48,368 nt of DNA. It comes from an uncultured Methanosarcinales archaeon (GTDB lineage: Archaea > Nanobdellota > Nanobdellia > Woesearchaeales > CAYSVS01). The stretch lies in assembly GCA_964589485.1 (NCBI GenBank), contig CAZPRK010000001.1, forward strand, positions 1 through 48,368, written 5' to 3'. Under the pieces are notes generated by a model. The model saw only the letters and a program-made list of their open reading frames with translations, was not told the origin of the DNA and ran no database searches. The position numbers and the translations under genes are program-made. The stretch's first letter is position 1. Each line of letters opens with the position of its first letter. Below are positions 10,134 through 45,719 of the stretch, piece after piece.

Positions 10134-11147
10134 ATGCAAGAAATAGATAGTAAATATATGAAATTAAAAAAAAAGGGTTTTATTTTCAAAGGAGTTCTTA
10201 GAGAAATGTTTGAAGAAGTTATAATTGAGGATAGTAATTTAAAAGAAAACGATAGAACTAAAGTTTATGTTCCAAATCACAAAAGCCTGCTTGATTTTAT
10301 TTTTTTAAGCAATTATTTTCTTGAGAAAGGTAAGCCACCTTATATTATAGGTGGGTCTAATTTATTAATCCCAGGAATAACTAGTAACCCAGCTTTACTA
10401 GTCAATTTAGAAAAATGTGGTTTGATTAGAATGCCTCGTAATTTCAGAAAACAAAGGGAAGAAGGAACTCGATTCACTAAAGATCTTACAGAAATTTTAG
10501 AAAAAGGAGAAGATTTCATGGTTTTTGCAGAAGGAGGAAGAAGTTACGAAGGTGAAATGAAAGAGCTTAAAGATGGCATTTTAAAGAAAATTTTCAATGG
10601 AAAACAATTTGAAGTTGTTCCTATAAGTTTATCATATGAAGTAGTAGCAGAAGCAAAATTATTCCCCGGGCATAAAGGTCTAAAAAGAATGACAAAATAT
10701 GCAGGAACAATTATTATGTTAAAAGATTTATTTGCATTTGGAACACATTATTTTTCTGAAAACAAAGGAAATTTGTATATAGATTTCGGAGAATCGGAAT
10801 TAGTTTCTGAGCATGAAAACCACCAAAGTCTTTGCAAAAAATTACATGAAACAATGGCAAAGAATGTAAGAGTTACTGCAACTTCATTAGTAGCTTATTC
10901 CATGACAGAAGAACCTGAAACTATAGAAGAATTATATAAAATAGTTGAAGAAAAATTACAAACGTTATCTAATAAACCTATGGCGCAAAACATTAAAGAA
11001 ATGTCTGTAAAAGAAATAACAGATAGAGGTTTACAATTCTTAGCAGCAGTAAAAGATAAACAAGGAAAACCAAGCGTTAAAGAGCATTTATTTTCATACT
11101 ACGCAAGTCATATCCAACATTATTTCATGTCACCAAGAACTTCTTGA
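10134..11147 (+). CDS. Glycerolipid acyltransferase, PlsC/GPAT (LPLAT) superfamily (337 aa)
   Basis: Block I YVPNHKSLLDF (NHx4D), block III FAEGGRS, block IV VVPISLSY, and 'YIDFGE'. Confidence 0.88.
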   Translation: MQEIDSKYMKLKKKGFIFKGVLREMFEEVIIEDSNLKENDRTKVYVPNHKSLLDFIFLSNYFLEKGKPPYIIGGSNLLIPGITSNPALLVNLEKCGLIRMPRNFRKQREEGTRFTKDLTEILEKGEDFMVFAEGGRSYEGEMKELKDGILKKIFNGKQFEVVPISLSYEVVAEAKLFPGHKGLKRMTKYAGTIIMLKDLFAFGTHYFSENKGNLYIDFGESELVSEHENHQSLCKKLHETMAKNVRVTATSLVAYSMTEEPETIEELYKIVEEKLQTLSNKPMAQNIKEMSVKEITDRGLQFLAAVKDKQGKPSVKEHLFSYYASHIQHYFMSPRTS

Positions 11148-11836
11148 GCAGCTTTAACTCTATCTTCTGCATTAGTAATAGCTCTTCCTATTACCAATAT
11201 AGTTGATCCTGCCCTTACAGCATTCCCTGGTGTAAAAACTCTTTTCTGGTCACTTCCTGCATCAGTTACAGGGCCCTTAACACCAGGTGTAACATACATA
11301 AAACCACTTGGTAATTTATCTTTAACATAATTTAAATCAGCTGCACTACAAACAATTCCATTAGCTCCACTTTCATTACTTAAAGTAGCTAAATGTAAAA
11401 CTTGTTCTTCTACTGGTCCATTAACTTTTAATTCAGTATTCATAATTTCTTGATTAATCGAAGTTAATACAGTAACACAAATCAATTTTGGTTTTCTTAA
11501 ATTAAATTTTTCAGAAGCTTCATTAATCCCAGAAACTGCAGCTTTAATCATTTCACTTCCACCTGATGCATGTACATTAAACATGTAAACTCCAAGTTTA
11601 GTTGCAGAATAAGCTGCATCTTTTACAGTGTTAGGAATATCATTATATTTCAAGTCAAGAAAAACTTCTCCGCCAATTGAATGAATCAATTTAACAACTT
11701 CAGGACCAAATTTAGTAAAACTTCCTTTACCAATTTTATACATCCCTACGTAATCTTTTAATTCAGAAACTAAAGCTCTAACTTCTTCTAAATTTTCTAA
11801 GTTATCTAGTGCTAAACAAACCTTTTCCTTCATCAT
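11120..11836 (-). CDS. pyrF: Orotidine 5'-phosphate decarboxylase
   Basis: CLALD, KIG, FLDLKYNDIPNT, NVHASGG, VTPGV, DQKRVFTP, VIGRAIT. Confidence 0.97.
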   Translation of the reverse strand: MMKEKVCLALDNLENLEEVRALVSELKDYVGMYKIGKGSFTKFGPEVVKLIHSIGGEVFLDLKYNDIPNTVKDAAYSATKLGVYMFNVHASGGSEMIKAAVSGINEASEKFNLRKPKLICVTVLTSINQEIMNTELKVNGPVEEQVLHLATLSNESGANGIVCSAADLNYVKDKLPSGFMYVTPGVKGPVTDAGSDQKRVFTPGNAVRAGSTILVIGRAITNAEDRVKAAQEVLGDMK

Positions 11837-13140
11837 AATAACCTCGTTGCCATATTTGCTAAAGCAAAAATAAAATCATCAGCATACATACTTTTTAAAG
11901 TATGAAGCATAACATTTCTTCCATTAACAATTTCAAAAAGTTCTGCTCTTTCATCAACTGAATGACTTTTTCCATTTCCTGGAACAAACAATAAACCAGA
12001 TGGAATACCTAAATTAGCAAAAACAGCCAAATCATGCCCTGGGCCAGATATCATTTCTTCACTTTTTAATTCCAAAGTTTCACAAGCTTGAACTGTATAA
12101 TTCATAATTTTAGAATCTAATTTGGGAATAGGTGTTCCCCTACTTGCAACTTCAAGAGTATAATTCATTCTTTTTTTTTCTACATGAGCTTTTACAAGTT
12201 TGTTTACTAGTAAATCCACAGAATTCAACATATCATCACTTATACTTCTAATATCCATAAAAATATTATACTCTTCAGGAACTTTAGCAGTACTATGTAG
12301 TTTAGAATTAGTCCCAGTCATTGTTGAAGACCAAACTAAGTCCTCACCATGACTATACCAATCTAAAAAATCATTTATAGCTACTTTAATCTGACTACCT
12401 AATAAATCAGCATCTTTTCTTAATTCCATAGGTTGTCCACCAGAATGTGCAGCTTCACCTATAATTTTAATTTTATATCTTAATGGAGCTCTTAATCCAG
12501 TAACAATACCAATATCTAGATCCTTTTCTAATAAATACCCAGACTGCTCTATATGTGCTTCTAAGTAAGTAGTAATATTTTCAATATTAATTGTAGAAGT
12601 ACATTTTCGAATCATTCCTGTATTGTAACCTTGAGATTCAATTGCATCTTTTAATGTTATTGGATTAATTTTCCCTTCCAAATTTAATAGTTCTGGATTT
12701 AATTTTCCAACACTTGCTAAGGCGCCCATTAATGCCTGTCCATATTGAGTAGATTTTTCTCCTCTAAATGCACCAACTACAACATTTGGGAATACATTTT
12801 CTTTACTTTCTTTAATATATTTCAAAACTTCTAGCCCAACTATAACGCCTAAAACTCCATCGTAAGTTCCCCCACCATTTATACTATCTAAATGAGAACC
12901 AATTAAAACACTCGGCTCACTAAACATATCTTCTCCTGCTGTAATAAATAAATTACCAACAGAATCTATTTTGGGTCTTAATCCATAACTATCTGCAATT
13001 CCACTAATCAATTCATGCATTTGAGTTTCTTCATCACTCCATGCTAATCTCCTAAATCCATGTTCTATTCCATCACCTAAGTTACCAATTGACATCATAG
13101 GTTCAATATATAATTTTTCTATACGTTCAGTTAACTCCAT
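11833..13140 (-). CDS. M20-family Zn amidohydrolase (hydantoinase/carbamoylase, allantoate amidohydrolase-like)
   Basis: RLAWS, DSVGN, GSHLDS..GG.YDG.LG, EAHIEQ, AHSGGQPM..RKDA, SGPGHD, GKSHSVDE. The EE motif reads EK. Confidence 0.9.
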   Translation of the reverse strand: MELTERIEKLYIEPMMSIGNLGDGIEHGFRRLAWSDEETQMHELISGIADSYGLRPKIDSVGNLFITAGEDMFSEPSVLIGSHLDSINGGGTYDGVLGVIVGLEVLKYIKESKENVFPNVVVGAFRGEKSTQYGQALMGALASVGKLNPELLNLEGKINPITLKDAIESQGYNTGMIRKCTSTINIENITTYLEAHIEQSGYLLEKDLDIGIVTGLRAPLRYKIKIIGEAAHSGGQPMELRKDADLLGSQIKVAINDFLDWYSHGEDLVWSSTMTGTNSKLHSTAKVPEEYNIFMDIRSISDDMLNSVDLLVNKLVKAHVEKKRMNYTLEVASRGTPIPKLDSKIMNYTVQACETLELKSEEMISGPGHDLAVFANLGIPSGLLFVPGNGKSHSVDERAELFEIVNGRNVMLHTLKSMYADDFIFALANMATRLL

Positions 13141-15544
13141 TTTCTATAACCTCTTTAATATCCAAATCAACTCCAAACTTTTCTTTTACAGCAGAATACA
13201 ATTCATCCAACTTCCCATTTTTATCTAAATATTCTCCATATAATTTTAAAAATTTCTTAGCTCTATCTAATTTCCCTTTAGCTGGATCAAATTCATCAAC
13301 TAAATCTAATGCTCCATTTTCAGAAAGGTAACTATGATGCCATTTTAAAGGATCACGTAAATAAAATAAATTTCTGTCAACATTATCACTATATTCATTC
13401 AAAAAATCTTCATTTATTTCAACAAAGGAATGTAAATTAACCCCTATTTTATCTAACCTATCATCTTTTTGCATTCTATCTGCAACAGCAACAACATCTT
13501 GAACATTAATTCCTTTATTTCTTAACATTGGAACCCAACCTTTTTCCATATTATCTTCAATACGAAACACACTAGAAGCCAATGTAATTAAATCAACTAT
13601 ATGAACCGCATTAGTCCCTTCAACTAAATCTCCAAAACTCCCATCTGGCATTATAACTTCTAATTTATCTTTTTCCCCAGTTTGTTTGTATAATGAAATA
13701 TGTGGAAGACCTAAAACTTTAGCAACAGGTCCAGAAAAAATCCAATCTCTTCTTTGTCCACCAGAAATAGCCCAAGGTTGAGGTTTCTTAGATAAAATTT
13801 CTTTCGCCTTACTAGATAAAATTTGAATTACTTTTGCAAAATCTAAATCATCCATCATCGCAATACAATGATTAATCATACCTAAACTATCTTCTCCATA
13901 ATCTTTAAATTTCCCACCATCTCTACATAATTTTTCAGTATTATTATAATATATACCTAATTCACCAGATGTAAAAATAACAGGTTTATCTAAATCTTTA
14001 AATGCTCCAGTTTCAAGTAATTTATTTTTTAAAAAATCTAAATCATTCTCAATCATTCCTTTTGGAAGATTTTTAATATATTCATTAATTTCTAAAACCT
14101 TAATTTTTCTATTTCTAATTTCATATTTCTGTCTACAATATCTACATTTAATTCCATTATCAAAATAAAATTTAGGAGGTACATCTTCCTTTATATCTCT
14201 TACAATACAATTACTATTTCTACATAAAAGATAAACAAATTTATCTATAACTTTTCCATTTTTAATTACATTAATTGTAGGTTCATTTGAAATAATAGAA
14301 ATACTTTTTAGTTCTCTTTCTGAAACATTCTCCATATTAGTTTTCAAAAAACTTTTACCTTCAAACTCAGAAGTAGGTGGCAAATGTGCAGGCATCGAAA
14401 CATATCCTTTATCTGCTAAACTTAATTTTGCAGCAATTTCAAATGCAGCCCCATATTCTAAATGATCAATGGAAAGACCTTCATTTAAATTATCTATAAA
14501 CAAACCTTCCTTTACTTTTTCATCAATTTTACGTTGTAATTTATTATTTCCATATAATAAATCTGAACTTAATTCTGAATCAAAAATAGTATATTCAGTA
14601 TTATTAAGAATTTCAAATAATAAAGCTTTACGCGTAAAAATTCCATTTTCAGCTTGAACTAAAAAACCTTGTGAATTTGAAAAGTAAACTTCATTTTCAA
14701 TTTCTTCCAATTCAGAATTAACAGGCATAGGATGTAATAATTTTCCATTAAAATTTTTAATTTTTTCAGCATCAATTTTATATTTTTTAATCATTCTCAT
14801 TATCTGACTATTATCAACACCCTTCATTCTCTCTAATTGAGGTCTAGTCATATAATAAAAATCAACATTTTCAAGAACTTCTTCAACATTATTATGTCGT
14901 ATTACTTTCACTCCTCTTAATTCTAATAAATCAATTAACTCTTGTGGCAGGCCTAAAAAATCTTCAGCTGCCCAATGAATAGATATATCTTTAAAATGAG
15001 ACAATAATAAACTTAAAGATCTTACAGTTCTCCCATGACTTAAATCTCCTCCAAATCCAATCTTAAGTCCATCTAAAACGCCATTATTATAAGAATATAA
15101 AGTAAAAATATCTAACAAAGATTGAGTTGGATGTTCATTCTTCCCATCTCCTCCATTAATTACAGGAATTTTTGCAACATCTGCTGCCCACTGAACACTT
15201 CCATCTATTGGATTTCTCATTACTATAACATCAAAATGATTTGCTTCCATCATTTTCACTGTATCCATTATAGATTCATTTTTTTTTACAGAAGTTCCAT
15301 CAACTCCAGAAAAACCATCTCTTTTCCCACCTAACTGGCTCATTGCCGTATCGAAACTTAATTTAGTTCTTGTACTAGGTTCATAAAACATATAAGCCAT
15401 TTTTTTATTTTTCAAAGAAGAACTCAACCCATATCTGTTATTTGATTTTTCAAGTTGTTTCATTTCATTTGCTTTATTACACAAATATAAAATTTGTTCA
15501 GAATTTAAATCTGAAATTGAAATTATATCTTTTTTTTCAAACAA
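13127..15544 (-). CDS. pyrB: Fusion of aspartate carbamoyltransferase catalytic chain, PyrI-like regulatory/Zn domain and orotate PRTase-like domain (805 aa)
   Basis: PyrB: FYEPSTRT, HPTQSLLD, GDLSHGRTVRSL, YMTRPQLER, HPMP. PyrI-like: 'GLSIDHL', CRNSNCI...CRYC. PyrE-like: FTSGELGIYY, ISGGQRRDWIFS, HIVDLITLASS. Confidence 0.9.
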   Translation of the reverse strand: MFEKKDIISISDLNSEQILYLCNKANEMKQLEKSNNRYGLSSSLKNKKMAYMFYEPSTRTKLSFDTAMSQLGGKRDGFSGVDGTSVKKNESIMDTVKMMEANHFDVIVMRNPIDGSVQWAADVAKIPVINGGDGKNEHPTQSLLDIFTLYSYNNGVLDGLKIGFGGDLSHGRTVRSLSLLLSHFKDISIHWAAEDFLGLPQELIDLLELRGVKVIRHNNVEEVLENVDFYYMTRPQLERMKGVDNSQIMRMIKKYKIDAEKIKNFNGKLLHPMPVNSELEEIENEVYFSNSQGFLVQAENGIFTRKALLFEILNNTEYTIFDSELSSDLLYGNNKLQRKIDEKVKEGLFIDNLNEGLSIDHLEYGAAFEIAAKLSLADKGYVSMPAHLPPTSEFEGKSFLKTNMENVSERELKSISIISNEPTINVIKNGKVIDKFVYLLCRNSNCIVRDIKEDVPPKFYFDNGIKCRYCRQKYEIRNRKIKVLEINEYIKNLPKGMIENDLDFLKNKLLETGAFKDLDKPVIFTSGELGIYYNNTEKLCRDGGKFKDYGEDSLGMINHCIAMMDDLDFAKVIQILSSKAKEILSKKPQPWAISGGQRRDWIFSGPVAKVLGLPHISLYKQTGEKDKLEVIMPDGSFGDLVEGTNAVHIVDLITLASSVFRIEDNMEKGWVPMLRNKGINVQDVVAVADRMQKDDRLDKIGVNLHSFVEINEDFLNEYSDNVDRNLFYLRDPLKWHHSYLSENGALDLVDEFDPAKGKLDRAKKFLKLYGEYLDKNGKLDELYSAVKEKFGVDLDIKEVIENGVN

Positions 15545-16551: not shown

Positions 16552-16566
16552 TTTTAAATAGTTTGC
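16552..16566 (-). promoter_or_regulatory. Putative BRE-TATA promoter for the rpa-pyr genes
   Basis: Minus strand GCAAACTATTTAAAA in the short intergenic region upstream of rpa. Confidence 0.45.
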
Positions 16567-18545
16567 TATACTTTAGTATCTAATATTCTAGAATACTCTT
16601 CAATATTAGAAGGTTTTTCTTCATTTCCTTGAAGATATACACCATAACAATCAGCTTCAGGAACATTAAAGTTCTTACTTTCAGAAGTTGCCATATTTCC
16701 TAAAATAAGAGGTTTCTTATCAAACATACTATCACATTCACCATAATAAAGATTAACTTTTAATTCTGTTTCTTTAATACTGCTAGAATCTACATTCCTA
16801 GTAGGTGAAATTACAGTTAACCCACCATATATATAAGTTATTAAAGGTTTTTCTGGGGACAAATCATCTATTGATTTAACTTTAACATAATCATTATTAC
16901 TATTTTCGGAAATAACTTTTACATAATAATCAATATTATCTTCAACTTCTAATTCAAATTTACTTTTTTCTAATTTAACTATTGTAGGTTCAATATCTAA
17001 ATTTTTAGTATAATGTAAATAATAATCTAAATCATCATAATCAAAAGTAACTTCAAGTGAATTTTCTGCATTTATTTTATCTTCAACTTTAAAACCAACT
17101 TTTTGTAAATTACTTAATTCTAATGCAAATTTATATTCATTACTTAATAAATCAGTTGAACAAAACTTATACACATTCCCTTTATTTTCATACTTCCCTT
17201 TACAATCCCAATATAATGCATTTTTTTTCACACAATTTAATTTATTCTTTGCTTTTCCACATTCATCTAAAATGATAATTGATCTTTTTTTAATATTATC
17301 TAAATATTTAATAAAATCAAAAACTTTAATTTTAACATTAGGTTTTACTTCATATACACCTGAAATTTCACGTTGAGTTGTTTTTTTATCTAACTCAATA
17401 GTTGCTTCTCCTGTAATTTTATTTCCTTGAAAACTAGTCATTATTCTTCTATGTAATTTAATCAATTTATTAGAATATTCGGAATCAGTAGCGTATCCTC
17501 CTTTATGAATTTCAATAAACATCCTTTCAGATGAATCTAAATAATTCATTGCCCCAGAATATCTTTTAAAAGAACTGATTAAGGTAGCATAATCATAAAT
17601 AGACTCACAATAATTATTATAAGCTCTAAATTTTGCTTTCACTAAACAATCATCCTTTCCAAAAGAACATTTATATTTTTTCTGATTACAATCAATTATA
17701 AAATCTTTATTTTTTTCTTGTTGACTTGAAGAATAACATTCATGGGTTTCTCTCAAACTACAACCATTTGTTCCTTCTTTTTTTGAAGTACATTTATATC
17801 CAAACAAATTATAAGCAAAAGTTTCATCAAATTTAGATTGTTTAGTTGCTAATTGACTTCTACCCCATCCACTTTCATGTATAGCTTGTGTTAATGCAAC
17901 ATCCCACGGAACTTTAGTTTCCTTTTGAACATCCAATAAACAACCACCAATTCCAACCAAAGGACTGTTTTCTGATTTTAAAAATCTATCAATTGCATTA
18001 TTACTAGGAATAAAATCAATTTGAACAGGAATATCATTTTTAATATATTCTTTATCAATTTCAGATAAATATTTCATTAAATTTAATGGTTTACCTAAAG
18101 GAAACCGTAAATCATCTTGCGCAATTGCAATCATGTTTAATTGATTTTCAGAATCATATACAAAGTCAATATGGTAATTAGGAGGTGAAGCAATAGGATA
18201 ATTTTTCAAATATTGATTAAATTTTTTACTTACTAAAATAGACATTTTTTGTTTAATATTATTAGGAAAACAATTATTTAGTTTATTAAAACCATCAATT
18301 TTTCCACAATCACTTTGTTGATATAACTCAATTAAACTTTCTTCAAATGCAAATTTAGCAGCAACATCAAAATATAATAAAATATTTTCACTTTTTTGAA
18401 CAGTGTCAAGTACTGCTAATTGTATTTCTCCAATGTAAGAACTTTGAACTTGATGTTTAGGTGAAGCTATCAACAATATTGCTAATGCAGCCATAACACT
18501 AAGAACTACAATTATTAAAGTCATACCTCCTTTTTTATTCATCAT
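16566..18545 (-). CDS. Class III signal (prepilin-like) protein carrying a GH73/FlgJ-type peptidoglycan hydrolase domain and C-terminal beta-sandwich domains
   Basis: MNKKG|GMTLIIVVL N-terminus. GH73 motifs: ALTQAIHESGWGRS, YNLFGYK, TxE, FRAY..Y.ESI.DY, KRY, GGYATD.EY..KL. Confidence 0.9.
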   Translation of the reverse strand: MMNKKGGMTLIIVVLSVMAALAILLIASPKHQVQSSYIGEIQLAVLDTVQKSENILLYFDVAAKFAFEESLIELYQQSDCGKIDGFNKLNNCFPNNIKQKMSILVSKKFNQYLKNYPIASPPNYHIDFVYDSENQLNMIAIAQDDLRFPLGKPLNLMKYLSEIDKEYIKNDIPVQIDFIPSNNAIDRFLKSENSPLVGIGGCLLDVQKETKVPWDVALTQAIHESGWGRSQLATKQSKFDETFAYNLFGYKCTSKKEGTNGCSLRETHECYSSSQQEKNKDFIIDCNQKKYKCSFGKDDCLVKAKFRAYNNYCESIYDYATLISSFKRYSGAMNYLDSSERMFIEIHKGGYATDSEYSNKLIKLHRRIMTSFQGNKITGEATIELDKKTTQREISGVYEVKPNVKIKVFDFIKYLDNIKKRSIIILDECGKAKNKLNCVKKNALYWDCKGKYENKGNVYKFCSTDLLSNEYKFALELSNLQKVGFKVEDKINAENSLEVTFDYDDLDYYLHYTKNLDIEPTIVKLEKSKFELEVEDNIDYYVKVISENSNNDYVKVKSIDDLSPEKPLITYIYGGLTVISPTRNVDSSSIKETELKVNLYYGECDSMFDKKPLILGNMATSESKNFNVPEADCYGVYLQGNEEKPSNIEEYSRILDTKV

Positions 18546-18987
18546 CCACACATCCTTTCTGTTTAAACAAATTTAAAATTAACAAATCATTACTTCCTTT
18601 TATTGGTAAAGTTACACTTGCAGTTTTTATGCTATTTGGACAATTAAAATTATTTTTCCATAATATTTTTTGTTTTTCTTCATTCTTGTATATTGTTAAT
18701 TGCCAATTTTGTTGATAAAATGTAGATTTAAAAAAATCACTTGCATTAATATGAAAATATTCATAATTATCATTTTCAACACTACTATAAATTAAATCAA
18801 TATTCTGTCTTGAAAATTCTCTTAAAATTTCTTGATATTCAATGTCAGTAACTATATTTTCAGTATTTTCATTAATATTAATTTGTTTAACTTCCTGAAA
18901 CCCCATAAAAGAAAATAATAAAATCATTAACAAAATAACTGAAACTACTATTTCCACAATATCATAAGTAATTGCTTTTTTATTCAT
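18535..18987 (-). CDS. Class III signal peptide (pilin-like) protein (150 aa)
   Basis: MNKKA|ITYDIVEIVVSVILLMILL; GAGGTGA RBS; overlaps neighbours. Confidence 0.8.
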   Translation of the reverse strand: MNKKAITYDIVEIVVSVILLMILLFSFMGFQEVKQININENTENIVTDIEYQEILREFSRQNIDLIYSSVENDNYEYFHINASDFFKSTFYQQNWQLTIYKNEEKQKILWKNNFNCPNSIKTASVTLPIKGSNDLLILNLFKQKGCVDDE

Positions 18988-19414
18988 TGTTCACCTCAAT
19001 AAATAATTTACTTTCTTTATTATTTACATAAACTTGCTTTGAAAAAGTTCTTTGTGGTAATCCATTCCAATTTTTAGTTTGAATTACTTTATCATTAAGG
19101 GTCAATCTAAACGCAACACCTTTATCTACATTATAACATTTTGAAAATTGTTCGTTATTAAATTTACCCATATCTATATACAGGGGATAAACTCTATCAG
19201 ATAAAGTATCATACGTAGCAAAACAATACGGAGAATATACAAACCGTTGTACATATACTAAACTCTTTAATTCTTTAGGAACACTTCCTGCATCTTGTAC
19301 ATATTTTGAAGCAACCATAAAAAAAACTACAATAATTAACCCAATAAAAGTAATTCTAATCAAATTAGTTATTGTAAACCAAGTTGTAGTAATACCTTTT
19401 TTATTCAACATCAT
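18980..19414 (-). CDS. Class III signal peptide (pilin-like) protein
   Basis: MMLNKKG|ITTTWF plus hydrophobic helix; 'RFVYSPYCF' motif; start trimmed from 19426 to the ATG after GGAG. Confidence 0.78.
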   Translation of the reverse strand: MMLNKKGITTTWFTITNLIRITFIGLIIVVFFMVASKYVQDAGSVPKELKSLVYVQRFVYSPYCFATYDTLSDRVYPLYIDMGKFNNEQFSKCYNVDKGVAFRLTLNDKVIQTKNWNGLPQRTFSKQVYVNNKESKLFIEVNNE

Positions 19415-20183
19415 AAAACTCCGCAACTGCTAATTGTATATATTGAAAAGATGCAATAACATCTGGCAACTCTAAAATTATACTATTTTCATATTCCAAA
19501 TCATCTTTTGGAATTATAACTAAATCTTCTTGAATAATTTCATTTACAAATAATCTAGTTCTTATATTTTGTAATAAATCATAATTTGAAATACTTTCTT
19601 TAGAAGGAAAATAACCTTTTGGCTTTTCACCTTCCCTTAAAAAAACATTTAAAACATTTTCTTCATCTTTGGGATTTTTAACTAATAAAGAATTGTCTAA
19701 TAATAAAGCTATATCTAATTCATTTTCATTTATATAATAAACTTTATCTAACTTAATTTTTTTATTTGTAAATGATTTTTTAATTTTTCTAGTATACTTC
19801 CCGGGGAAAGTATTACTTATAGCTAAATGTCCACCAAAATATTGAATCACTAAATTATCTTTAATTTCTAAATCCATATCTAAATCACCAATCGGAACAA
19901 AACGTTTAGTTACTTTAGTTGGTTCAAAATCATTTTCTTTCACAGATAATGTATTATCTTTAATTTCGTTAACAAAAGAACTATTATAATTTACAAAAAC
20001 ATTTCCAGGAACTGAATATAAAGTATCTATTAATAATACTTCATCTCCCGCTACATATAATTTATCAACCGCATATCCATTTACAAAAGAGTTTGCAGCT
20101 TGAAGAAAAAACCATCCAACTACTACCCCTAAAACTAATAACAATAACTCTTGCATTGATAAATCAATAGATCCTTTTTTCAT
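19401..20183 (-). CDS. Class III signal peptide protein with a possible degenerate Amidase_3-like C-terminal domain (260 aa)
   Basis: MKKG|SIDLSMQELLLLVLGVVV; 'LLIDTLYSVPGNVFVNY' pilin-like core; alpha/beta C-terminus ending SIILELP...IQLAVAEFY. Confidence 0.75.
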   Translation of the reverse strand: MKKGSIDLSMQELLLLVLGVVVGWFFLQAANSFVNGYAVDKLYVAGDEVLLIDTLYSVPGNVFVNYNSSFVNEIKDNTLSVKENDFEPTKVTKRFVPIGDLDMDLEIKDNLVIQYFGGHLAISNTFPGKYTRKIKKSFTNKKIKLDKVYYINENELDIALLLDNSLLVKNPKDEENVLNVFLREGEKPKGYFPSKESISNYDLLQNIRTRLFVNEIIQEDLVIIPKDDLEYENSIILELPDVIASFQYIQLAVAEFYDVE

Positions 20184-20698
20184 TTTTCACATGGTAATGT
20201 TGTACATATACCCATTGTTTGTTCATCAGTCTTTATAGAATATATTGTATTTGAAGTAATATCTGAAACTAAATTATTATCAACAATAACTCCGCCTGCA
20301 TAACCTTCAATATTTGTAAAAAAGCTTTCAGTCTTAACATCTCTACAAATCATATTACCTTTCAAAGTAGTAGTAAATTCACACCTACTACAAAAACAAA
20401 CACAAGCTTTATTCTGACAAGTTAATGGTTTTTCTATTTCTTTATCTGAAAAACTTATTTCGTTAGTATCTTTATCAAAAAAAAAGAAAGCACTTCCTTC
20501 ATTTAAAATTGAAACAAATTTTCCTGATTCATCTAAATCAAGTTTATTTAATCCTTCATCTAAAGCATTAAAAGCATCTTTTTCAGAATAAGTATTTTGT
20601 GCATCTGTGTAACTTCTAAAAATCCCAAGAAAAGCAAATATCAATATAACTCCCATAATCAAAGAAACTAAAGCTTTAGTTGCCATTCCTTTTTTCAT
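20180..20698 (-). CDS. Class III signal peptide (pilin-like) Cys-rich protein (172 aa)
   Basis: MKKG|MATKALVSLIMGVILIF; 'KPLTCQNKACVCFC'; ATGA overlaps. Confidence 0.8.
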   Translation of the reverse strand: MKKGMATKALVSLIMGVILIFAFLGIFRSYTDAQNTYSEKDAFNALDEGLNKLDLDESGKFVSILNEGSAFFFFDKDTNEISFSDKEIEKPLTCQNKACVCFCSRCEFTTTLKGNMICRDVKTESFFTNIEGYAGGVIVDNNLVSDITSNTIYSIKTDEQTMGICTTLPCEK

Positions 20699-20952
20699 TT
20701 TGCCCTCAATAATATTTCACAATTCCTGCTACTTGTTGGACATTTTTCATGTTCTCCAGAATCACAAGGACATTTATCAATTACATCTTTAATTCCATCA
20801 TCATCAAAATCAGTACTTAATCTTGAAATTTGAGTTTCTCCAACTTCACTTTGTTTTCCTAATAAATTTTTATACACAAACATTAATATTACTGCAATAG
20901 CTATAACTAGTATTGCTTTAACTAAAAATTCGAAAGCTAACCCTTTTTTCAT
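20695..20952 (-). CDS. Small pilin-like protein with a TSP3-like Ca-binding motif (85 aa)
   Basis: MKKG|LAFEFLVKAILVIAIAV; DFDDDGIKDVIDKCPC. Confidence 0.8.
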   Translation of the reverse strand: MKKGLAFEFLVKAILVIAIAVILMFVYKNLLGKQSEVGETQISRLSTDFDDDGIKDVIDKCPCDSGEHEKCPTSSRNCEILLRAK

Positions 20953-21611
20953 TTATTTTCACCACATTTATTTAACTCAACTTCAAAACAATCATCATCC
21001 AATAATCCATCTGCATCACACCAAAGATTTCCCCTTTTTGTTGGAATAAAACACACATGACTTTCGTCAGGGTAATATAACTTTTCAACTGTTCGTTTAC
21101 CAAATTCAATATCATCTATAATAAAATCAAAACCTTCTATTATTATATTATCAACTTCTCTGAAAGTTTTTGAATTTGAAGAAGAACCTTCATTAAAATA
21201 CTTATTATAAAATCCTTGAGCTTCAACTACACATGGAACTTTCCCAGGAATATTTGTATTAATTAAACTTAAACCATCTTCAGTTATTACTTGTACTAAC
21301 ATTCCATCACTTACTTTTGAAACTATGATTTTATTATTTCCTATAATGAGATCATAATCAATAAAACAATTTTTATTTGTTTTTCGTAACTTTTCAAATA
21401 AATCCAAATAAGATTTCTCAAGTCTAGGATTTATCTCGGTATACTCTTGCTTAATATCAACTGTTTCTTGAGGTAATTCTCCTCGTAATAACTCATCAGT
21501 TGAAAGTTCTAACCCAGGTAACCAATATCTAATAAAAATTCCTGCAACTAACACTAATACTAATATTCCTAATGTCCAACCAACAACTTCAGAAAACCCT
21601 TTCTTAGACAT
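20949..21611 (-). CDS. Class III signal peptide (pilin-like) protein (220 aa)
   Basis: MSKKG|FSEVVGWTLGILVLVLV; GAGGT RBS; Cys-containing C-terminus. Confidence 0.8.
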   Translation of the reverse strand: MSKKGFSEVVGWTLGILVLVLVAGIFIRYWLPGLELSTDELLRGELPQETVDIKQEYTEINPRLEKSYLDLFEKLRKTNKNCFIDYDLIIGNNKIIVSKVSDGMLVQVITEDGLSLINTNIPGKVPCVVEAQGFYNKYFNEGSSSNSKTFREVDNIIIEGFDFIIDDIEFGKRTVEKLYYPDESHVCFIPTKRGNLWCDADGLLDDDCFEVELNKCGENK

Positions 21612-21733
21612 TAAAAATACCTCGTTACAATTTCTAACATATCAGTTCTCATTTTACTTATAAAAAAAAGTATAGCGATAAGTAATAACAACAACAATAA
21701 AATCCCCAATATTTGATTTCTTGCAAACTCCAT
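21611..21733 (-). CDS. Uncalled 40-aa single-TM micro-protein
   Basis: MEFARNQILGILLLLLLLIAILFFISKMRTDMLEIVTRYF*. GGTGA RBS 7 nt upstream; its TAA overlaps the next ATG; fills the gap exactly. Confidence 0.75.
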   Translation of the reverse strand: MEFARNQILGILLLLLLLIAILFFISKMRTDMLEIVTRYF

Positions 21734-21744
21734 CTTAATTTCAC

Positions 21745-22923
21745 CTAATTTTGAATATTACAATAATTTTGTACTCTTTGATATGGACTAACCAATACAT
21801 AATTTAAATCATCACTTAACTTTGCAGTTTCACTCCCTACTATAGTTCCTATTGTTCCTAAAGTAGCTGATCCCGCTACTGCTCCCGCCACAGCTCCACT
21901 GACAGTAAGTGCCACAGGTGTTAATAATCCTCCTGAAGTGGCAGTTATTATTGTACCCACAAATGTTCCTGCAATAGCTGCTCCAGTAGTAGCGCCGCCC
22001 CATGTACCAAGAACTCCTCCTAATAAAGAAGTTGAAGCCATAACACCTTCTAAAGCATCAGTATTTGCAACAAAAGTTATTGCATAAACTTGTTCATCTT
22101 CAACAAAATTTTCCAATATACCATCAAATACAACTCTTCCTGGTCCTTTTGACCTTTGAACATAATCTAAATAATTATAGTGATTTTCTTTTTTGACGCA
22201 ACATTTATTTCCAGAAGAACAACCCCACGTAGAATACTCAGCAGTTCCTTCTCCACAAGAACCACTACATTCTCCGCCATTATTTAAACAAGTATGTCCA
22301 CTAAAACAACAACCATTATCAGTTACATATTTAGTTTTACATTTATTACTTTTTTCATTAAACTTAAAACCAAGGGTAGATAAACAATCTTCTTCTGATT
22401 CAAATTTACTATTGCCAACACAAAATCCACCACCTAATGTACAACCATCACTTTCAGCATTTACAACTTTTACTTGATCTACCATAAAATTAATTTGTTC
22501 AGTTACAGGAAATCTATCAATATCTTTCCCATTATTTTCCAAATCAGTTATTGTAGTTAAGTAACATACATTACAATTATTATCCCACAAACTCAAATCT
22601 AATGCATTCCTTGATAATGCACCTTCTAAATTCATGTACCAACATTGAGAAATTAAATCTGCCATATTTTTTTGTACTTCTTTTACTTCTTTTCCTTTGA
22701 AAGGAATATCTTTTTGTTGAGCTTTACATTTTGGTTTAAATAAAACTTGCTTACCTAATATTGCAGCATTATTAGCTTCAGCCATACTTATTCTACAAAT
22801 TTCTTCATTGAAATTATCTTGACTTTTATCTAAAACAGTTTTTTCTAAATTTAATACTACAATACTACTTACTAAAACAATAATTAATCCTACAATAAAA
22901 GAAGCTCTTGCTTTTTTATTCAT
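21745..22923 (-). CDS. Pilin-like protein with Cys-rich (defensin-like) modules and a C-terminal glycine-zipper hydrophobic segment (392 aa)
   Basis: MNKKA|RASFIVGLIIVLV; 'MADLISQCW' core; CLNNGGEC...C...CC; GGVLGTWGGATTGAAIAG...GAVAGAVAG. Confidence 0.82.
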   Translation of the reverse strand: MNKKARASFIVGLIIVLVSSIVVLNLEKTVLDKSQDNFNEEICRISMAEANNAAILGKQVLFKPKCKAQQKDIPFKGKEVKEVQKNMADLISQCWYMNLEGALSRNALDLSLWDNNCNVCYLTTITDLENNGKDIDRFPVTEQINFMVDQVKVVNAESDGCTLGGGFCVGNSKFESEEDCLSTLGFKFNEKSNKCKTKYVTDNGCCFSGHTCLNNGGECSGSCGEGTAEYSTWGCSSGNKCCVKKENHYNYLDYVQRSKGPGRVVFDGILENFVEDEQVYAITFVANTDALEGVMASTSLLGGVLGTWGGATTGAAIAGTFVGTIITATSGGLLTPVALTVSGAVAGAVAGSATLGTIGTIVGSETAKLSDDLNYVLVSPYQRVQNYCNIQN

Positions 22924-23030
22924 GCTCCAACCGCCACCGAGAATTTCTGTCTAATAATCCATAGAACAAAGGCAAATATTGCTAAATATATTATAATCTG
23001 AATCCAACTCATTTGCCCTCTTTTAAACAT
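22920..23030 (-). CDS. Uncalled 36-aa minimal prepilin-like peptide
   Basis: MFKRG|QMSWIQIIIYLAIFAFVLWIIRQKFSVAVGA*. Class III motif, ATGA overlap with the 392-aa gene, canonical promoter directly upstream. Confidence 0.8.
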   Translation of the reverse strand: MFKRGQMSWIQIIIYLAIFAFVLWIIRQKFSVAVGA

Positions 23031-23051
23031 TTATTTATAAACAGAAACAAG

Positions 23052-23068
23052 ATATAAAAGCTTTTCGG
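23052..23068 (-). promoter_or_regulatory. Canonical archaeal BRE-TATA promoter (leaderless) for the 23030-16566 sub-operon
   Basis: Minus strand CCGAAAAGCTTTTATAT; TATA centre about 25 nt upstream of ATG 23030. Confidence 0.7.
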
Positions 23069-23071
23069 TGA

Positions 23072-23308
23072 CTAGCTTTTCAAGTTAATACAACACATTC
23101 TTTCTTCGCCACAATCCACATCTGGAATTATTTGATCACACTGTCCATCTAATGGAAGACACGCCCCACCTTTAGTAAAACATGAACTTAAATCTTCAGA
23201 AATATCGCTAGTTTTACTTTGAAAAATTGCTAAAAGTATTACCAAAACAACTATAGCAATAACTGCCATAATTATTACATTAAACGGTAATCCTTGAGCT
23301 TTTTTCAT
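23072..23308 (-). CDS. Small archaeal type IV pilin-like protein with a Cys-rich head (78 aa)
   Basis: MKKA|QGLPFNVIIMAVIAIVVLVILL; CFTKGGAC...C...C...CC. Confidence 0.85.
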   Translation of the reverse strand: MKKAQGLPFNVIIMAVIAIVVLVILLAIFQSKTSDISEDLSSCFTKGGACLPLDGQCDQIIPDVDCGEERMCCINLKS

Positions 23309-23325
23309 TTTAAAAAATAAAAAAA
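23309..23325 (-). terminator. Possible oligo-T terminator after the 91-aa pilin
   Basis: Minus strand TTTTTTTATTTTTT immediately after the stop codon. Confidence 0.4.
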
Positions 23326-23601
23326 TTATTCTTGCTCATAACAGAGCTTCGGATCAGTACAATCTATCCAACCAGCAGCTGGAACTTCCGCTTCCACATA
23401 TCCATCAGGTTGTGATTCTAAACAAACTCTATCTGCTCTTAAACAAACATTTTGAACTCCTACTTCGCTAGTTGTATCTACACCTTTTCCGAATACATTG
23501 ATTCTTCCAGTGAATATAGCTACTAATAATACTAAAACAACTAAACCTATTGCAGCAATTATGATCACATTTAAACTAATTCCTTGAGCTTTCTTATACA
23601 T
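23326..23601 (-). CDS. Candidate major type IV pilin (91 aa)
   Basis: MYKKA|QGISLNVIIIAAIGLVVLVLLVAIFTG; own promoter and a strong GAGGTGA RBS. Confidence 0.85.
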   Translation of the reverse strand: MYKKAQGISLNVIIIAAIGLVVLVLLVAIFTGRINVFGKGVDTTSEVGVQNVCLRADRVCLESQPDGYVEAEVPAAGWIDCTDPKLCYEQE

Positions 23602-23634
23602 AAACTCACCTCATATCTAATTTAACAACTTTAA

Positions 23635-23649
23635 TATTTAAATCTTGCG
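23635..23649 (-). promoter_or_regulatory. BRE-TATA promoter for the 91-aa pilin
   Basis: Minus strand CGCAAGATTTAAATA followed by the GAGGTGA RBS. Confidence 0.6.
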
Positions 23650-23650
23650 A

Positions 23651-24139
23651 TTAAGAACATATCTCTAACCTTACAAACATTGTTTTCCCACTTGCAGTAG
23701 GAGTTGGAATTTCTGCAACTTCAGCTTCTCCTGTGCACTTAATAGTACCAAAATTCATTACTTCATTATCAATACTTAATGAAAAATAATACTTTTTTTT
23801 CCAAGTATCTAAAGTTTGTTCAAATATTTTTGTCATAGAGTTATCAATATACTTGCATGAATCCATTATATCACTAGGACTATTTAAATTATTACAACTA
23901 ATATATTTATTAGTCATACAATCTTCAAACAATTCTTCCAAAGTAGTTTTTTTACATCCAGAAGAAGTTCTTAATATAGAAGTTAACATATTATTAGTTT
24001 GTTGAGACTCAGTATAAACTTTCTGTATACTTTCTCCAGGTTCTTTTAACACAAAAAACTGAAAAACTAACAACATTCCAAAAGATAACAATAAAACAAC
24101 AATTGCTAATCCTAATATTTCCATTTGAGCTTTTTTCAT
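23651..24139 (-). CDS. Class III signal peptide (minor pilin-like) protein (162 aa)
   Basis: MKKA|QMEILGLAIVVLLLSF; multiple Cys. Confidence 0.85.
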   Translation of the reverse strand: MKKAQMEILGLAIVVLLLSFGMLLVFQFFVLKEPGESIQKVYTESQQTNNMLTSILRTSSGCKKTTLEELFEDCMTNKYISCNNLNSPSDIMDSCKYIDNSMTKIFEQTLDTWKKKYYFSLSIDNEVMNFGTIKCTGEAEVAEIPTPTASGKTMFVRLEICS

Positions 24140-24618
24140 TTAAAAACCTCAATTGTTAATACTCCTATTGAATACTCGTCATTCACAGGATCATATAAAG
24201 AAATAGGTAATTGTGTTTGAGTTGAATCTACATTTTCTAAAGATCTATCATATACAACATATTCTTCTTCTCCTAAAAAAACTTTCTTTACAATAATTTT
24301 ACTATTTTTAAATTTATCAAAGTAAATAGTATCTCGATAAATATTGTTATCTTTTAAATATTGTTTAAAAACTTCTATTTTTTCAATATCAAAACAATAC
24401 CCTTCATATACATTAAAACCCTTTGAACATAATAATTCTGGCAAGTTCAACACTAATTGATTTATACTCACTGTAGATAACTGAGAAAACTCTTCTTTTT
24501 TAGTATCAACTGAAGTTTTTTGTAACCCCACATAAAACACTAAACCAAAAACCAATAAAATAAAAAAAACTACTAAAATTCCAATATTTTCTGCAATTTG
24601 TAATTGTCCTTTTTTCAT
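24136..24618 (-). CDS. Class III signal peptide (minor pilin-like) protein (160 aa)
   Basis: MKKG|QLQIAENIGILVVFFILL. Start at 24618 (TGATG overlap, GGTGA RBS) preferred over 24636. Motifs LPELLCS and PISLYDP. Confidence 0.85.
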   Translation of the reverse strand: MKKGQLQIAENIGILVVFFILLVFGLVFYVGLQKTSVDTKKEEFSQLSTVSINQLVLNLPELLCSKGFNVYEGYCFDIEKIEVFKQYLKDNNIYRDTIYFDKFKNSKIIVKKVFLGEEEYVVYDRSLENVDSTQTQLPISLYDPVNDEYSIGVLTIEVFK

Positions 24619-25601
24619 CAGTATATCACCGGACAAGATAGTTGTCTTAATTGATTATTGTTTCCTTCAATAGTTAAATGATCACTTTTATCAAATGCAT
24701 TTGATTTTAGATCATTAAATTTACATGAATTAAAATCATTCATACAAGAAGTTACTTCTGTTTTAAAAATATCATATTTTACTTTAGACCAAAAAACACA
24801 TTTTAAATTTTCTAAATTTTCAAATCTAGTATAAGATAAATCTGAAATAATTTTTAACTTTTTCATAGCGTTAGTCATCATACAATCATAATGTTCTTTA
24901 TTCTCGGAAAATATAGCTGCGTAAACTAATTCATTATTATCTTGATCTATATTAATTTCTTCATTATTTAGTTTTTTATTTTCAATATTAAAAACACTAT
25001 ATTTATCTTCACCGAAAGCTTTTTTTAGGTCATTATCATCTACATCAACATCTGTAACAACCCTAACATGATGATTATTTTGATCTTCAAGATTAGTCCA
25101 ACAATCATCTTTTTTATCACAAACTTCTTTATTTAATTCCTTAGGTAACTCAGCTTCAAGTAATTTTATTCGGTCACAATTAGAATCACAAACAAAAATA
25201 TATCTAACATTATCAGTTGTTAAATATAAAAAATTTCCAACTTTCATTGGATAGTTCCAACTTTTACTCCAAGTAATTAAATTTCTTCCTTTAATGGAAG
25301 CAGGAGAAAATAACATACTATTTTCTAAATTCCTAGATGCACTTCCAACCCTAAAACTACTACAATCTACATTAATTTCTATATTTGGAAAAGGTACTTT
25401 AGTTGCAGTCCCATCGCTAACTCTTGCACCTGTAAAAATTGCATCTAAATCAACAGCTATTGTAGTTTCTAATGCAACATTACTTGAATCTTTTTGCATT
25501 GCAATAAAACCGACAAAGAAAGCTAAAATAACTCCACCTGCAATTAAAACAAACATCCAATTAAATTGAATTCCAACTTGTCCCCTACTTCCAAGCTTCA
25601 A
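24618..25601 (-). CDS. Class III signal peptide (minor pilin-like) protein, about 327 aa
   Basis: TTG 25601 after GGGGTG gives MKLGSRG|QVGIQFNWMFVLIAGGVILAFF; ends CPVIY. Confidence 0.8.
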   Translation of the reverse strand: MKLGSRGQVGIQFNWMFVLIAGGVILAFFVGFIAMQKDSSNVALETTIAVDLDAIFTGARVSDGTATKVPFPNIEINVDCSSFRVGSASRNLENSMLFSPASIKGRNLITWSKSWNYPMKVGNFLYLTTDNVRYIFVCDSNCDRIKLLEAELPKELNKEVCDKKDDCWTNLEDQNNHHVRVVTDVDVDDNDLKKAFGEDKYSVFNIENKKLNNEEINIDQDNNELVYAAIFSENKEHYDCMMTNAMKKLKIISDLSYTRFENLENLKCVFWSKVKYDIFKTEVTSCMNDFNSCKFNDLKSNAFDKSDHLTIEGNNNQLRQLSCPVIY

Positions 25602-26067
25602 TCTTAACACCCCGTCCAACTCCTTCAAGACGTAAGTTTATGAAACCATCGGCAGAATCTAAACAAATAAAAGGGTCATCTTCATTTTTAATATAACTTA
25701 TTTTTTCTGTACCCATTCGTAAAGCTTTAAAATTTTTTCCTATTAAAAAAACATTATCTCCAGTTTTACTATCAACGCTATCTTTAATTAAAGGATATTG
25801 ATCAATTGAAAGAGCATTACCCAAATCAACAAAACATATAGCATCGAACCCTACAGGCAAAACAGCTTTATGTTGTTTTACATTTCCATACTTTGCATAA
25901 GTTGTTTTAATAACTCCATTTAATTCATTCTCAAAATCAATTAAACTTGCCTGTTCACTAGTTTCTTTTATTTTTGTAAATGAACTATACCCAAATAACA
26001 TTATACCAGAAACTAAAAAAATAGATACAATTATTCCAAATATTTGAGCTTGTTGACCTTTTTTCAT
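25585..26067 (-). CDS. Class III signal peptide (minor pilin-like) protein (160 aa)
   Basis: MKKG|QQAQIFGIIVSIFLVSGIMLFGY; 'ICFVD', 'NVFL', 'LRLEG' motifs. Confidence 0.85.
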   Translation of the reverse strand: MKKGQQAQIFGIIVSIFLVSGIMLFGYSSFTKIKETSEQASLIDFENELNGVIKTTYAKYGNVKQHKAVLPVGFDAICFVDLGNALSIDQYPLIKDSVDSKTGDNVFLIGKNFKALRMGTEKISYIKNEDDPFICLDSADGFINLRLEGVGRGVKIEAWK

Positions 26068-29732: not shown

Positions 29733-29733
29733 A

Positions 29734-42543: not shown

Positions 42544-42584
42544 ATAAACACCCTATATATATTTAATATATTAAATATTATATC

Positions 42585-42600
42585 ATTTATAAATGTTGCG
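42585..42600 (-). promoter_or_regulatory. BRE-TATA promoter for the giant-protein operon
   Basis: Minus strand CGCAACATTTATAAAT about 40 nt upstream of TTG 42543. Confidence 0.6.
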
Positions 42601-42629
42601 ATGAGAAATAATAAGTAAATATAAAGAAT

Positions 42630-45600: not shown

Positions 45601-45719
45601 TTAACTTGTTGTTTAATTTGTTGTTCTGTTGTTATTTGCGCAAATATGAATATCCCTCCAAATACAGAAACTACTACTACACCTAATAAAATAAAAGCCG
45701 TAATTTGCGCTCTTTTCAA
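42630..45719 (-). CDS. Large class III signal peptide protein: pilin-like N-domain, Ig/PKD-like domains, GIFT/DUF4350-like domain, Cys-rich C-terminus (1029 aa)
   Basis: MKRA|QITAFILLGVVVV; 'YISSCLEE...QGG'; NRPPILD; 'YEKLENLLEGNGFSV...YDQVWV...NKEYLVNVANWL'; GAGGT RBS. Confidence 0.82.
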   Translation of the reverse strand: MKRAQITAFILLGVVVVSVFGGIFIFAQITTEQQIKQQVNLLTTDLLQTTALEYYISSCLEEATNEALVRAAEQGGILYEDSSDDEDVIEKIAETKFMVVDGQKVNYGIYNELETDNDYGYYTPNAKIDDVNNLGDREFPRICDKKGPNNPSSSLVSTCDVSSYGGILDDFTLQELLSFYIANRSKKCLDLDVIRTKFNYELVEKGKPSVDVLYGEDDVLVKLNYPFEFSLPDQEPFLKNISLDIKKNVRIKKVFELAAKIVDQEIKKFDFDFLKDHLGLKSGKNTLLWDNFIDVQKSKIGSDYLIYVTDSRSLIKGQELGLKFAVKNRPPILDLIQGTAPGGAWASEGFHYVVNEGDEIVLEPKAVDPDGDELEFELETVSGGIVVDEWVEVEYNVDTGIGPIYTLNTMGHVGDHEVKFSVKEEGSSVKDWQNIKFKILDVPIVKAFGHNIFNDIPTLSASIEDPFILNSSESKIPGRQNVEYNWRDLTEFFDISGKIAIVPPVFDIIKMDNLPFEDVGDDLASQSHEIQLTVKDSVETLGTEIFNVEVYPCLPHKSNLPSYPFIKLHDEYDETNPYMDFLGDHSCCVSGATETNGKNILVFIKGDQINKYEKLENLLEGNGFSVDLKTILPGTLDAYDQVWVVAREDTDGGENLKLNRFNKRDKNSIALFVTEDMSQYAPLGYKKSTTACHNLNEISQNHEIMNSVSPTVFNPVNIETIGGFTNIITDGTQACINNVYAAVRETSSNQRFQKKLIDGSVDRLINENLENENNKEYLVNVANWLSRLNQEVDTLQWGTIANEDTVCFQDDRNSCYPFTNPEFEGDDWRDIVEANEFETLEIISNNEKQNKISNDIYKRTFTQKCGGDRGNVCTGKVIEKYNVVNICPDKKSGEDESCFGPCAPGNDECNVNTCPGSGDSKVGGGCYAYGPGESFEKSFLKDPNADGICNEAYEYEKSGSLYQCNAQCGGPSNRGCTKRITSSCECKNDGDNAICDGISYLQRTLKKSVNGGTCKNCIFTPTSDDDSDD

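Follow-up and report, generated by a model that had tools for sequence, protein, structure and literature searches.

The stretch of archaeal DNA analysed here (contig CAZPRK010000001.1, positions 1 to 48,368; hereafter the window, with a GC content of 28%) carries on its reverse strand a block of open reading frames (ORFs) whose products start with a KK[G/A]-type leader. The final member of this block encodes a 661-aa protein in which a glycosidase of family GH73 is set as a cassette between a conserved N-terminal domain (N-domain) and a C-terminal part (C-domain), the coordinates of which are given in Table 1. The database copy of this protein (P0002) is identical, starts from the ATG at 18542, and comprises 658 aa, beginning MNKKGG. 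An earlier note, drawn from the sequence alone, had read the segment 17440..18000 as an intact, FlgJ-like peptidoglycan hydrolase with a Cys-rich hairpin, inserted into a prepilin-like protein of an archaeon between a pilin-like N-domain and C-terminal beta-sandwiches, and had taken its target to be foreign, namely bacterial peptidoglycan (murein).

The enzyme domain is identified by profile, residues, and fold, all of which agree with the description of an intact GH73. The Pfam profile PF01832 (Glucosaminidase) matches over its positions 6-121 of 123 and scores 86.8 bits (cutoff 30.2, E=2.4e-24), and a match of this strength, lying at 17442..17933 and thus inside the interval reported earlier, excludes chance. 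Each of the motifs on which the earlier description was built is present in the 661-aa ORF: QAIHESGWG (containing E226), NLFGYK (N248), RETHE (T269 and E271), FRAY (residues 308-311), and GGYATD (Y353). Catalysis in Salmonella FlgJ is described as relying on E184, located in the central helix, and on E223, located in a beta-hairpin that is mobile (PMC4752226), and by alignment E226, E271, and Y353 of the window protein sit at the GH73 catalytic positions. The position of E226 is occupied by Glu in 38 of the 39 GH73 domains that form the query's clade in the tree described below. At the position of E271, which a local alignment places against the ‘TTE’ of FlgJ-type proteins, Glu is found in 29 of the 39, with Q or K in a subgroup bearing a CC motif, and in all six outgroup rows. 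Among solved structures, FlgJ provides the GH73 domains that match best (5dn4, E=1.5e-12); aligned by sequence, the two proteins correspond in two separate parts, residues 210-260 and 303-372, with the hairpin region left unaligned. In an AlphaFold2 model built from 42 sequences (mean predicted local distance difference test score, pLDDT, 81.9; enzyme 92-98), the domain shows the alpha-lobe and beta-hairpin of the GH73 fold, and a Foldseek search with it returned FlgJ (5dn5_A, E=2.6e-7, TMt 0.75), Auto (3fi7, 0.67), and AtlA (7qfu, 0.69). The likeness to FlgJ holds for this catalytic domain and not for the rest of the protein: the rod-binding domain PF10135 finds no match in the Pfam scan, and the FlgJ model TIGR02541 reaches 72.6 bits against a cutoff of 193, with its C-terminal part only. 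The top NCBIfam match is NF038016, a GsmA-type model (E=4.2e-27), with a score of 95 against a cutoff of 240.

The Cys-rich hairpin is likewise real, both by count and by comparison. The stretch from NLFG to FRAY measures 56 aa and holds six Cys (C254, 264, 272, 288, 295, and 302), compared with 28-31 aa and 0-1 Cys in FlgJ-type matches and 31-35 aa and four Cys in a second group from the same search. The additional length is accounted for by a three-Cys expansion of the hairpin tip, residues 272-302, which is modelled with high confidence and whose position is conserved among archaeal-type relatives. The whole protein contains 16 Cys, eight of them within the enzyme module; in P0003, a relative of 44% identity, all eight are kept, including the six of the hairpin. 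These Cys would presumably form disulfides outside the cell.

Table 1. The GH73-bearing gene, its parts, and the leader-bearing ORFs upstream (window positions; residues of the 661-aa product unless stated otherwise)
Feature	Positions	Strand	Residues	Remarks
Whole gene	16566..18551	-	1-661	661 aa from GTG; ATG at 18542 gives 658 aa; stop codon 16566-16568
Leader MNKKGG and hydrophobic helix	18459..18542	-	4-31	about 22 hydrophobic residues; model helix 3-26 (P0002 numbering), pLDDT 74-93
Conserved N-domain	18048..18458	-	32-168	alpha/beta; from family alignments and hidden Markov model (HMM)
Inserted enzyme module	17430..18038	-	about 172-374	conserved lead-in IDxFLxxxxSPLxGxGxC, then GH73 domain
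GH73 (PF01832) catalytic domain	17442..17933	-	207-370	PF01832, E=2.4e-24
E226 in HESGWG	17874..17876	-	226	aligns to general acid/base E184 of Salmonella FlgJ (ALESGWG of 5dn4)
E271 in T-H-E-C	17739..17741	-	271	aligns to beta-hairpin Glu, StFlgJ E223 (‘TTTEY’)
Cys-rich hairpin-tip expansion	17646..17738	-	272-302	C272, C288, C295, C302; strands 260-271 and 296-306 with short helix between (model)
Y353 of GGYATD	17493..17495	-	353	Tyr in 39/39 clade members
C-domain	16569..17429	-	375-661	starts ‘GNKITG...SGVYEVKPNVKIKVFDF’, conserved; Cys-containing helical part; then FN3-like beta-sandwiches
16 upstream co-directional leader ORFs	18535..45719	-		part 18535..26067 collinear with L001 and L002

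That the enzyme is an insertion becomes apparent from relatives of the carrier. An exhaustive phmmer search of 1.84 billion representative sequences gave 1629 matches at E<=1e-3, of which the best 150, most of them matching in the GH73 alone, were listed and, together with the matches of word-index searches, supplied the sample for a census of modules. The N-domain family was defined by a local HMM of residues 1-165, to which the window protein matches with E=2.4e-52, and at least 21 distinct proteins among the stored matches contain this domain. Members of this scaffold family combine a KK[G/A/S] leader, a Cys pair in the N-domain (C82 invariant and C94 nearly invariant across the family), an optional enzyme slot, and a C-domain with the pattern GNxITG...IYEVxPN, all of which are found in the window protein. 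Three relatives (P0010, P0011, and P0014) have no Pfam match, and in each of them the N-domain passes directly into the C-domain (…LRIxLG… to GNxITG…SGIYEVxPNxKxKIFD…). Two of the three correspond in position to the window gene as its orthologs in the syntenic loci, P0010 in L001 and P0011 in L002. Since these orthologs join the two domains directly, without a GH73, the window protein carries, as judged by sequence comparison, an insertion of about 200 aa (residues ~172-374) at a domain boundary, just as the earlier note had held; the difference could reflect either gain in the lineage of the window or loss in the syntenic orthologs.

The slot is filled by different enzymes in different members of the family. 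By Pfam, it holds GH73 only in nine of the 21 N-domain proteins, a share inflated by the GH73 carried by the query itself, while one protein each has GH73 with Peptidase_M23 (P0018), SLT (P0102), M23 with SLT (P0158), Amidase_2 (P0138), or only sub-threshold matches to CHAP/NlpC_P60 (P0110, E=0.014-0.018), and the remaining seven are without an enzyme, P0157 showing a weak fn3 match only. One clear fragment (P0003) is contained in this set, and P0037, with 184 aa and the N-domain only, may be another. The sole substrate common to a glycosidase, a lytic transglycosylase, an N-acetylmuramic acid (MurNAc)-L-Ala amidase, and a peptide-bridge endopeptidase is bacterial peptidoglycan, which is the strongest argument for murein as the target: the earlier proposal of a foreign target gains from the SLT, Amidase_2, and M23 modules on the same scaffold, and murein is the probable rather than the demonstrated substrate.

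A different substrate would be conceivable, such as N-acetylglucosamine (GlcNAc) glycans in the envelope of an archaeal host, polymers resembling chitin, or the cell's own surface glycans during assembly of an appendage. The known hosts of cultured DPANN, the group in which the window probably belongs (see below), are archaea, which lack murein. The Pfam family takes its name from an endo-beta-N-acetylglucosaminidase activity on glycoproteins, the tip of the hairpin that lines the substrate groove is remodelled, and the Pfam scan finds no murein-binding domain. We nevertheless regard this explanation as very improbable, given that the enzymes in the slot of relatives (Amidase_2, SLT, and M23) have only murein in common as a substrate and that the catalytic residues are those of murein-cleaving GH73 enzymes; the characterised GH73 enzymes considered here act on peptidoglycan (PMC4752226).

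Of the two domains flanking the slot, the N-domain belongs to no known family, and nothing in the PDB matched its fold at E<=1e-3 (the best value being E=0.58). For the C-terminal part, the model predicts beta-sandwiches, with Foldseek matches to tandem fibronectin type III (FN3) folds at E of about 3e-5, in accordance with the beta-sandwich domains of the earlier description. PF01832 is the sole Pfam match in the 661-aa protein, and LysM, PG_binding, and SH3 domains were not found in the Pfam scan. This layout bears on the possibility that the protein is simply an enzyme, either released or tethered to the surface, which serves to feed on wall material of dead bacteria or to kill competitors at a distance in the manner of haloarchaeal peptidoglycan hydrolases (PGHs), with no role in attachment and with operon neighbours that are unrelated. 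Secreted haloarchaeal GH73 and M23 enzymes are reported to kill bacteria, with scavenging discussed as an open alternative, and the way in which close relatives either carry or lack the module agrees with the patchy, arms-race-like distribution that the same study describes (PMC12352652). However, the module is enclosed on both sides by conserved domains of the carrier instead of standing at a free end, relatives that lack the enzyme still retain the carrier, which has a fixed place in a conserved operon of surface proteins, and Pfam recognises no murein-binding domain that would hold a free enzyme on its substrate, all of which makes this explanation unlikely.

The archaeal origin of the window, assumed in the earlier note, is well supported by its neighbourhood. 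The gene immediately downstream encodes an archaeal-type replication factor A (RPA; Pfam Rep_fac-A_C; NCBIfam NF006255, E=6e-52, below the equivalog cutoff). A contig scan of species-representative genomes with the 661-aa protein as a single query found no relative; the same scan with an alignment of the C-domain found the two loci L001 and L002, both from metagenome-assembled genomes (MAGs) titled ‘uncultured Methanosarcinales archaeon’. By blastp, 15 window ORFs match L001 in order and 16 match L002, in addition to a match of one opposite-strand shadow ORF in L001, and the collinear region extends from 26067 down to the RPA gene in both loci and in L002 on to a PyrB-PyrI gene. RPA is 62-63% identical to its orthologs in L001 and L002, and PyrB-PyrI is 66% identical to its ortholog in L002. 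In L001 there is also a match to Rad51/HHH_5, as in archaeal RadA, and a homolog of it was identified by eye in L002. In the ESM Atlas, Archaea make up 95-100% of the neighbours found for the N-domain and for a 392-aa protein encoded nearby in the operon (96-100% for the N-domain clusters); the commonest phyla are Nanobdellota and Candidatus Woesearchaeota, with one of the three N-domain clusters consisting mostly of Methanobacteriota. Placement within DPANN/Nanobdellota is therefore likely. [quoted passage not shown] Scans of the window for tRNAs and Rfam families found nothing.

Some further genes of this neighbourhood deserve mention. The PyrB-PyrI gene of the window is an 805-aa ORF (13127..15544, reverse strand) that fuses PyrB (OTCace_N, OTCace) to PyrI (PyrI, PyrI_C) and continues into an extra C-terminal part of about 330 aa without a Pfam match, whereas its L002 ortholog has 511 aa and stops after PyrI. 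PyrF lies at 11120..11836, and an acyltransferase of the PlsC type (PF01553, E=3e-14), from a bacterial-type lipid enzyme family here found in an archaeal context, is encoded at 10134..11147 on the forward strand. Between 252 and 9622, both strands encode a number of proteins that are secreted or at the surface and contain CARDB, Big_13, and fn3 domains.

A phylogeny of the enzyme domain, which the earlier note had put forward as a way to trace donor and spread, was computed with IQ-TREE (quick) from 145 GH73 domains over 147 columns, the columns of the hairpin insert being lost at the 50% fill filter and many forks being unresolved. The query falls into a 39-row clade (SH-aLRT 99, stem length 0.45) that unites all ten scaffold GH73s with 13 other proteins starting with KK[G/A] and a helix and 16 others, among them polytopic membrane proteins with a C-terminal GH73. 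The scaffold GH73s are thus placed in a clade of their own kind, and this would fit one old acquisition of GH73 followed by shuffling among carriers. The rows of the tree come from a library of representatives without taxonomy. FlgJ-type rows and four-Cys rows, the latter including relatives of GsmA, lie outside the 39-row clade. A derivation of the window GH73 from the four-Cys, GsmA-like group found no support, the four-Cys rows being in the other main branch. The GC fraction of the GH73 segment (0.25-0.29) compared with that of its flanks (0.20-0.29) gives no sign of a recent transfer. Three of the clade's members (P0021, P0025, and P0026; 830-970 aa) start with a long polytopic membrane part, continue with a middle rich in Cys, and have their GH73 at the C-terminus; they constitute a second, unrelated carrier.

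The gene for the GH73 protein closes a series of 17 consecutive reverse-strand ORFs (16566..45719), the products of which all begin with [KR][GAS] and continue into some 20 hydrophobic residues, a pattern that we take to resemble archaeal class III leaders. The rule by which these leaders were recognised is a heuristic of our own, and it fits 19 of the 31 ORFs in the window and is not specific. Within the series, several products are of 78-170 aa with KKAQ or KKGQ starts, and others are giants of 1029, 1227, and 4269 aa. The GH73 protein itself begins with a short charged leader, MNKKG, followed by GMTLIIVVLSVMAALAILLIAS, which could be a signal similar to class III or else anchor the N-terminus in the membrane, and the protein is likely displayed outside the cell on its N-terminal helix. 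Among the other products of the series, the 4269-aa protein has CarboxypepD_reg repeats and 164 Cys, and the 1227-aa protein has 48 Cys. A 78-aa leader protein (23072..23308, reverse strand) ends in 43 Cys-rich residues that match Inhibitor_I68, a carboxypeptidase inhibitor family, with 27.1 bits against a cutoff of 25. The orthologs of ORF 24618..25628 (L001 1378..2697 and L002 874..2064) have two or three tandem leader-like segments of the form ‘KKAQ..QFNW..’ before the hydrophobic helix, where the window copy has one; these segments may be repeated leaders or the product of a mis-set start.

Taken together, these observations favour, with reasonable if not high confidence, an archaeal surface carrier equipped with a GH73 cassette that cuts bacterial peptidoglycan on contact. 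The KK-G leader and its single hydrophobic helix would either anchor the protein in the membrane or be cut as a class-III signal; the family-specific N-domain and the FN3-like C-terminal domains would act as the carrier, with the intact glycosidase between them as the cassette. Held outside the archaeal cell and stabilised by disulfides, the GH73 domain would cleave the GlcNAc-MurNAc glycan strands of murein upon contact, and this might serve to breach the wall of a bacterium, be it host, prey, or competitor, or to loosen it, or to free wall fragments. Archaea make no murein, and a surface protein of an archaeon that carries a complete hydrolase for it therefore points to direct dealings with bacteria.

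A sharper version of this reading, and a doubtful one, makes the protein a modular minor pilin that loses its leader to a class-III signal peptidase and resides in, or caps, a type IV filament made of the small KK[G/A]Q-leader proteins, with the GH73 at the tip drilling into the bacterial wall at a distance. It draws on the leaders of all 17 ORFs of the block and the pilin-like size of several of their products, on the order of the leader ORFs, which is conserved in L001 and L002, on the established existence of bacterial ‘modular pilins’ with grafted functional modules (PMC8179133), and on a sub-threshold match of one small operon ORF to BasB, a pilin-like protein of the Sulfolobus bindosome (E=0.024). 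Along the same lines, and just as tentatively, the operon as a whole could encode a surface appendage of class-III-leader proteins in which the last protein is the tool-holder at the tip or anchor, with one exchangeable slot (GH73, GH23/SLT, amidase, M23, or empty), the whole serving as a contact-dependent wall opener. If this were true, a sizeable branch of DPANN would live on or prey on bacteria rather than other archaea.

Several points weigh against the carrier reading and against its filament version. Apart from the archaeal hosts of cultured DPANN and the GH73 bias of the census, the protein has no known wall-binding domain, which leaves the targeting of the substrate unexplained, and the ‘Methanosarcinales’ in the titles of the L001 and L002 MAGs is at odds with placement in DPANN. 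The class-III reading of the leader depends on our own rule, and this rule picks out a further 12 proteins that lie apart from the query clade, in the other main branch of the GH73 tree. Pilin and class-III models of Pfam (to E=10) and NCBIfam (to E=1) match neither the N-domain nor any of the 8-9 operon proteins searched, the one related match being the sub-threshold one to BasB. The N-domain model (pLDDT 78) consists of a membrane helix, a break of low pLDDT at about residues 29-35, and then a separate alpha/beta domain, and no pilin is among its listed PDB matches. A type IV filament ATPase, a platform protein, and a prepilin peptidase were not found among the scanned ORFs of the window, and a 2026 survey describes recognised type IV filament systems as widespread in most archaeal phyla with the exception of Asgard and DPANN (PMC13705601). 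The prepilin-like N-domain of the earlier note thus comes down to a KK[G/A] leader with a hydrophobic stretch, and assembly of the protein into a filament appears a possibility of the less probable kind, in contrast to its display on the cell surface.

Among known systems, flagellar FlgJ (Salmonella 5DN4/5DN5; Sphingomonas 2ZYC/3VWO) provides the best match in sequence and fold, with the same Glu in ESGWG, the same hairpin Glu in T-x-E, and the same Tyr in YATD. The window protein differs from it in the missing rod-binding domain and flagellar context, in its longer hairpin (56 aa with six Cys against about 30 aa with 0-1), and in its archaeal host. GsmA-type, four-Cys GH73 enzymes (NF038016) share the positions of the first three hairpin Cys with the window enzyme (K-C ... 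G-C ... T-x-E-C), but are without the extra three-Cys insert at the tip and belong to the other main branch of the tree; as a presumably disulfide-knotted variant of the family, the window GH73 may interest enzymologists looking for a stable lytic enzyme.

Peptidoglycan hydrolases of archaea have been surveyed by Strock et al. (2025), who report PGH homologs in 175 of 3,706 archaeal genomes, prominently in Nanoarchaeota, and show that two haloarchaeal PGHs, one of them a PF01832 protein, kill a bacterium (PMC12352652). Danwoldo, the GH73 PGH of Halogranum salarium, combines PF01832 with two PG_binding_1 domains (PMC12352652). The novelty that the earlier note attached to an archaeal GH73 was accordingly overrated. 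Like these PGHs, the window protein is an archaeal PF01832 protein apparently aimed at a polymer that is absent from its producer, and the swapping of catalytic domains on a constant partner was also noted for them (PMC12352652). The survey required a known Pfam wall-binding domain, and the signal peptides it reports from SignalP 6 are of the Sec or Tat type (PMC12352652), whereas the window protein lacks a known binding domain as well as a Tat motif and instead shows a KKG leader, a new carrier of N-domain and FN3-like parts, and a place in a surface-protein operon. With PF01832 as its only Pfam match, it lies outside the modular-PGH definition of that survey, the main text of which does not contain the terms ‘pilin’ or ‘class III’. 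Published surveys have counted only archaeal wall hydrolases with known wall-binding domains, a definition that misses the N-domain scaffold family, and the anti-bacterial repertoire of archaea is thus probably larger than counted.

GH23 lytic transglycosylases are reported in Woesearchaeota MAGs (Vigneron et al. 2022, PMC9723730, and AR20 cited there), where enzymes cleaving murein glycans in DPANN-type archaea are likewise read as an attack on bacteria. An SLT domain occurs in the scaffold family of the window protein as well (P0102 and P0158). The enzyme here is a GH73, however, and the relevant portion of that report describes no carrier scaffold, slot, or operon. The modular type IV pilins of bacteria (Raynaud et al. 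2021, PMC8179133) follow the same concept, in which a functional module is grafted onto a carrier whose leader is of the class-III type and is thereby presented outside the cell. These contain a pilin module, IPR012902, of canonical fold (PMC8179133), in contrast to the window protein, for which no pilin model or fold was detected, and neither ‘hydrolase’ nor ‘archaea’ appears in the main text of that study. No description of the carrier family, the slot, or the operon was found in the open-access literature searched. A fixed slot, swapped enzymes, and orthologs with an empty slot amount to a natural experiment, in which the same operon occurs with or without an enzyme, and this contrast might help to find out whether certain ultrasmall archaea, so far uncultured, attach to bacteria or feed on them. 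Murein hydrolases of archaea are thus already part of the published record, and what the window protein adds to it is the carrier architecture, the exchangeable slot, and the empty-slot orthologs.

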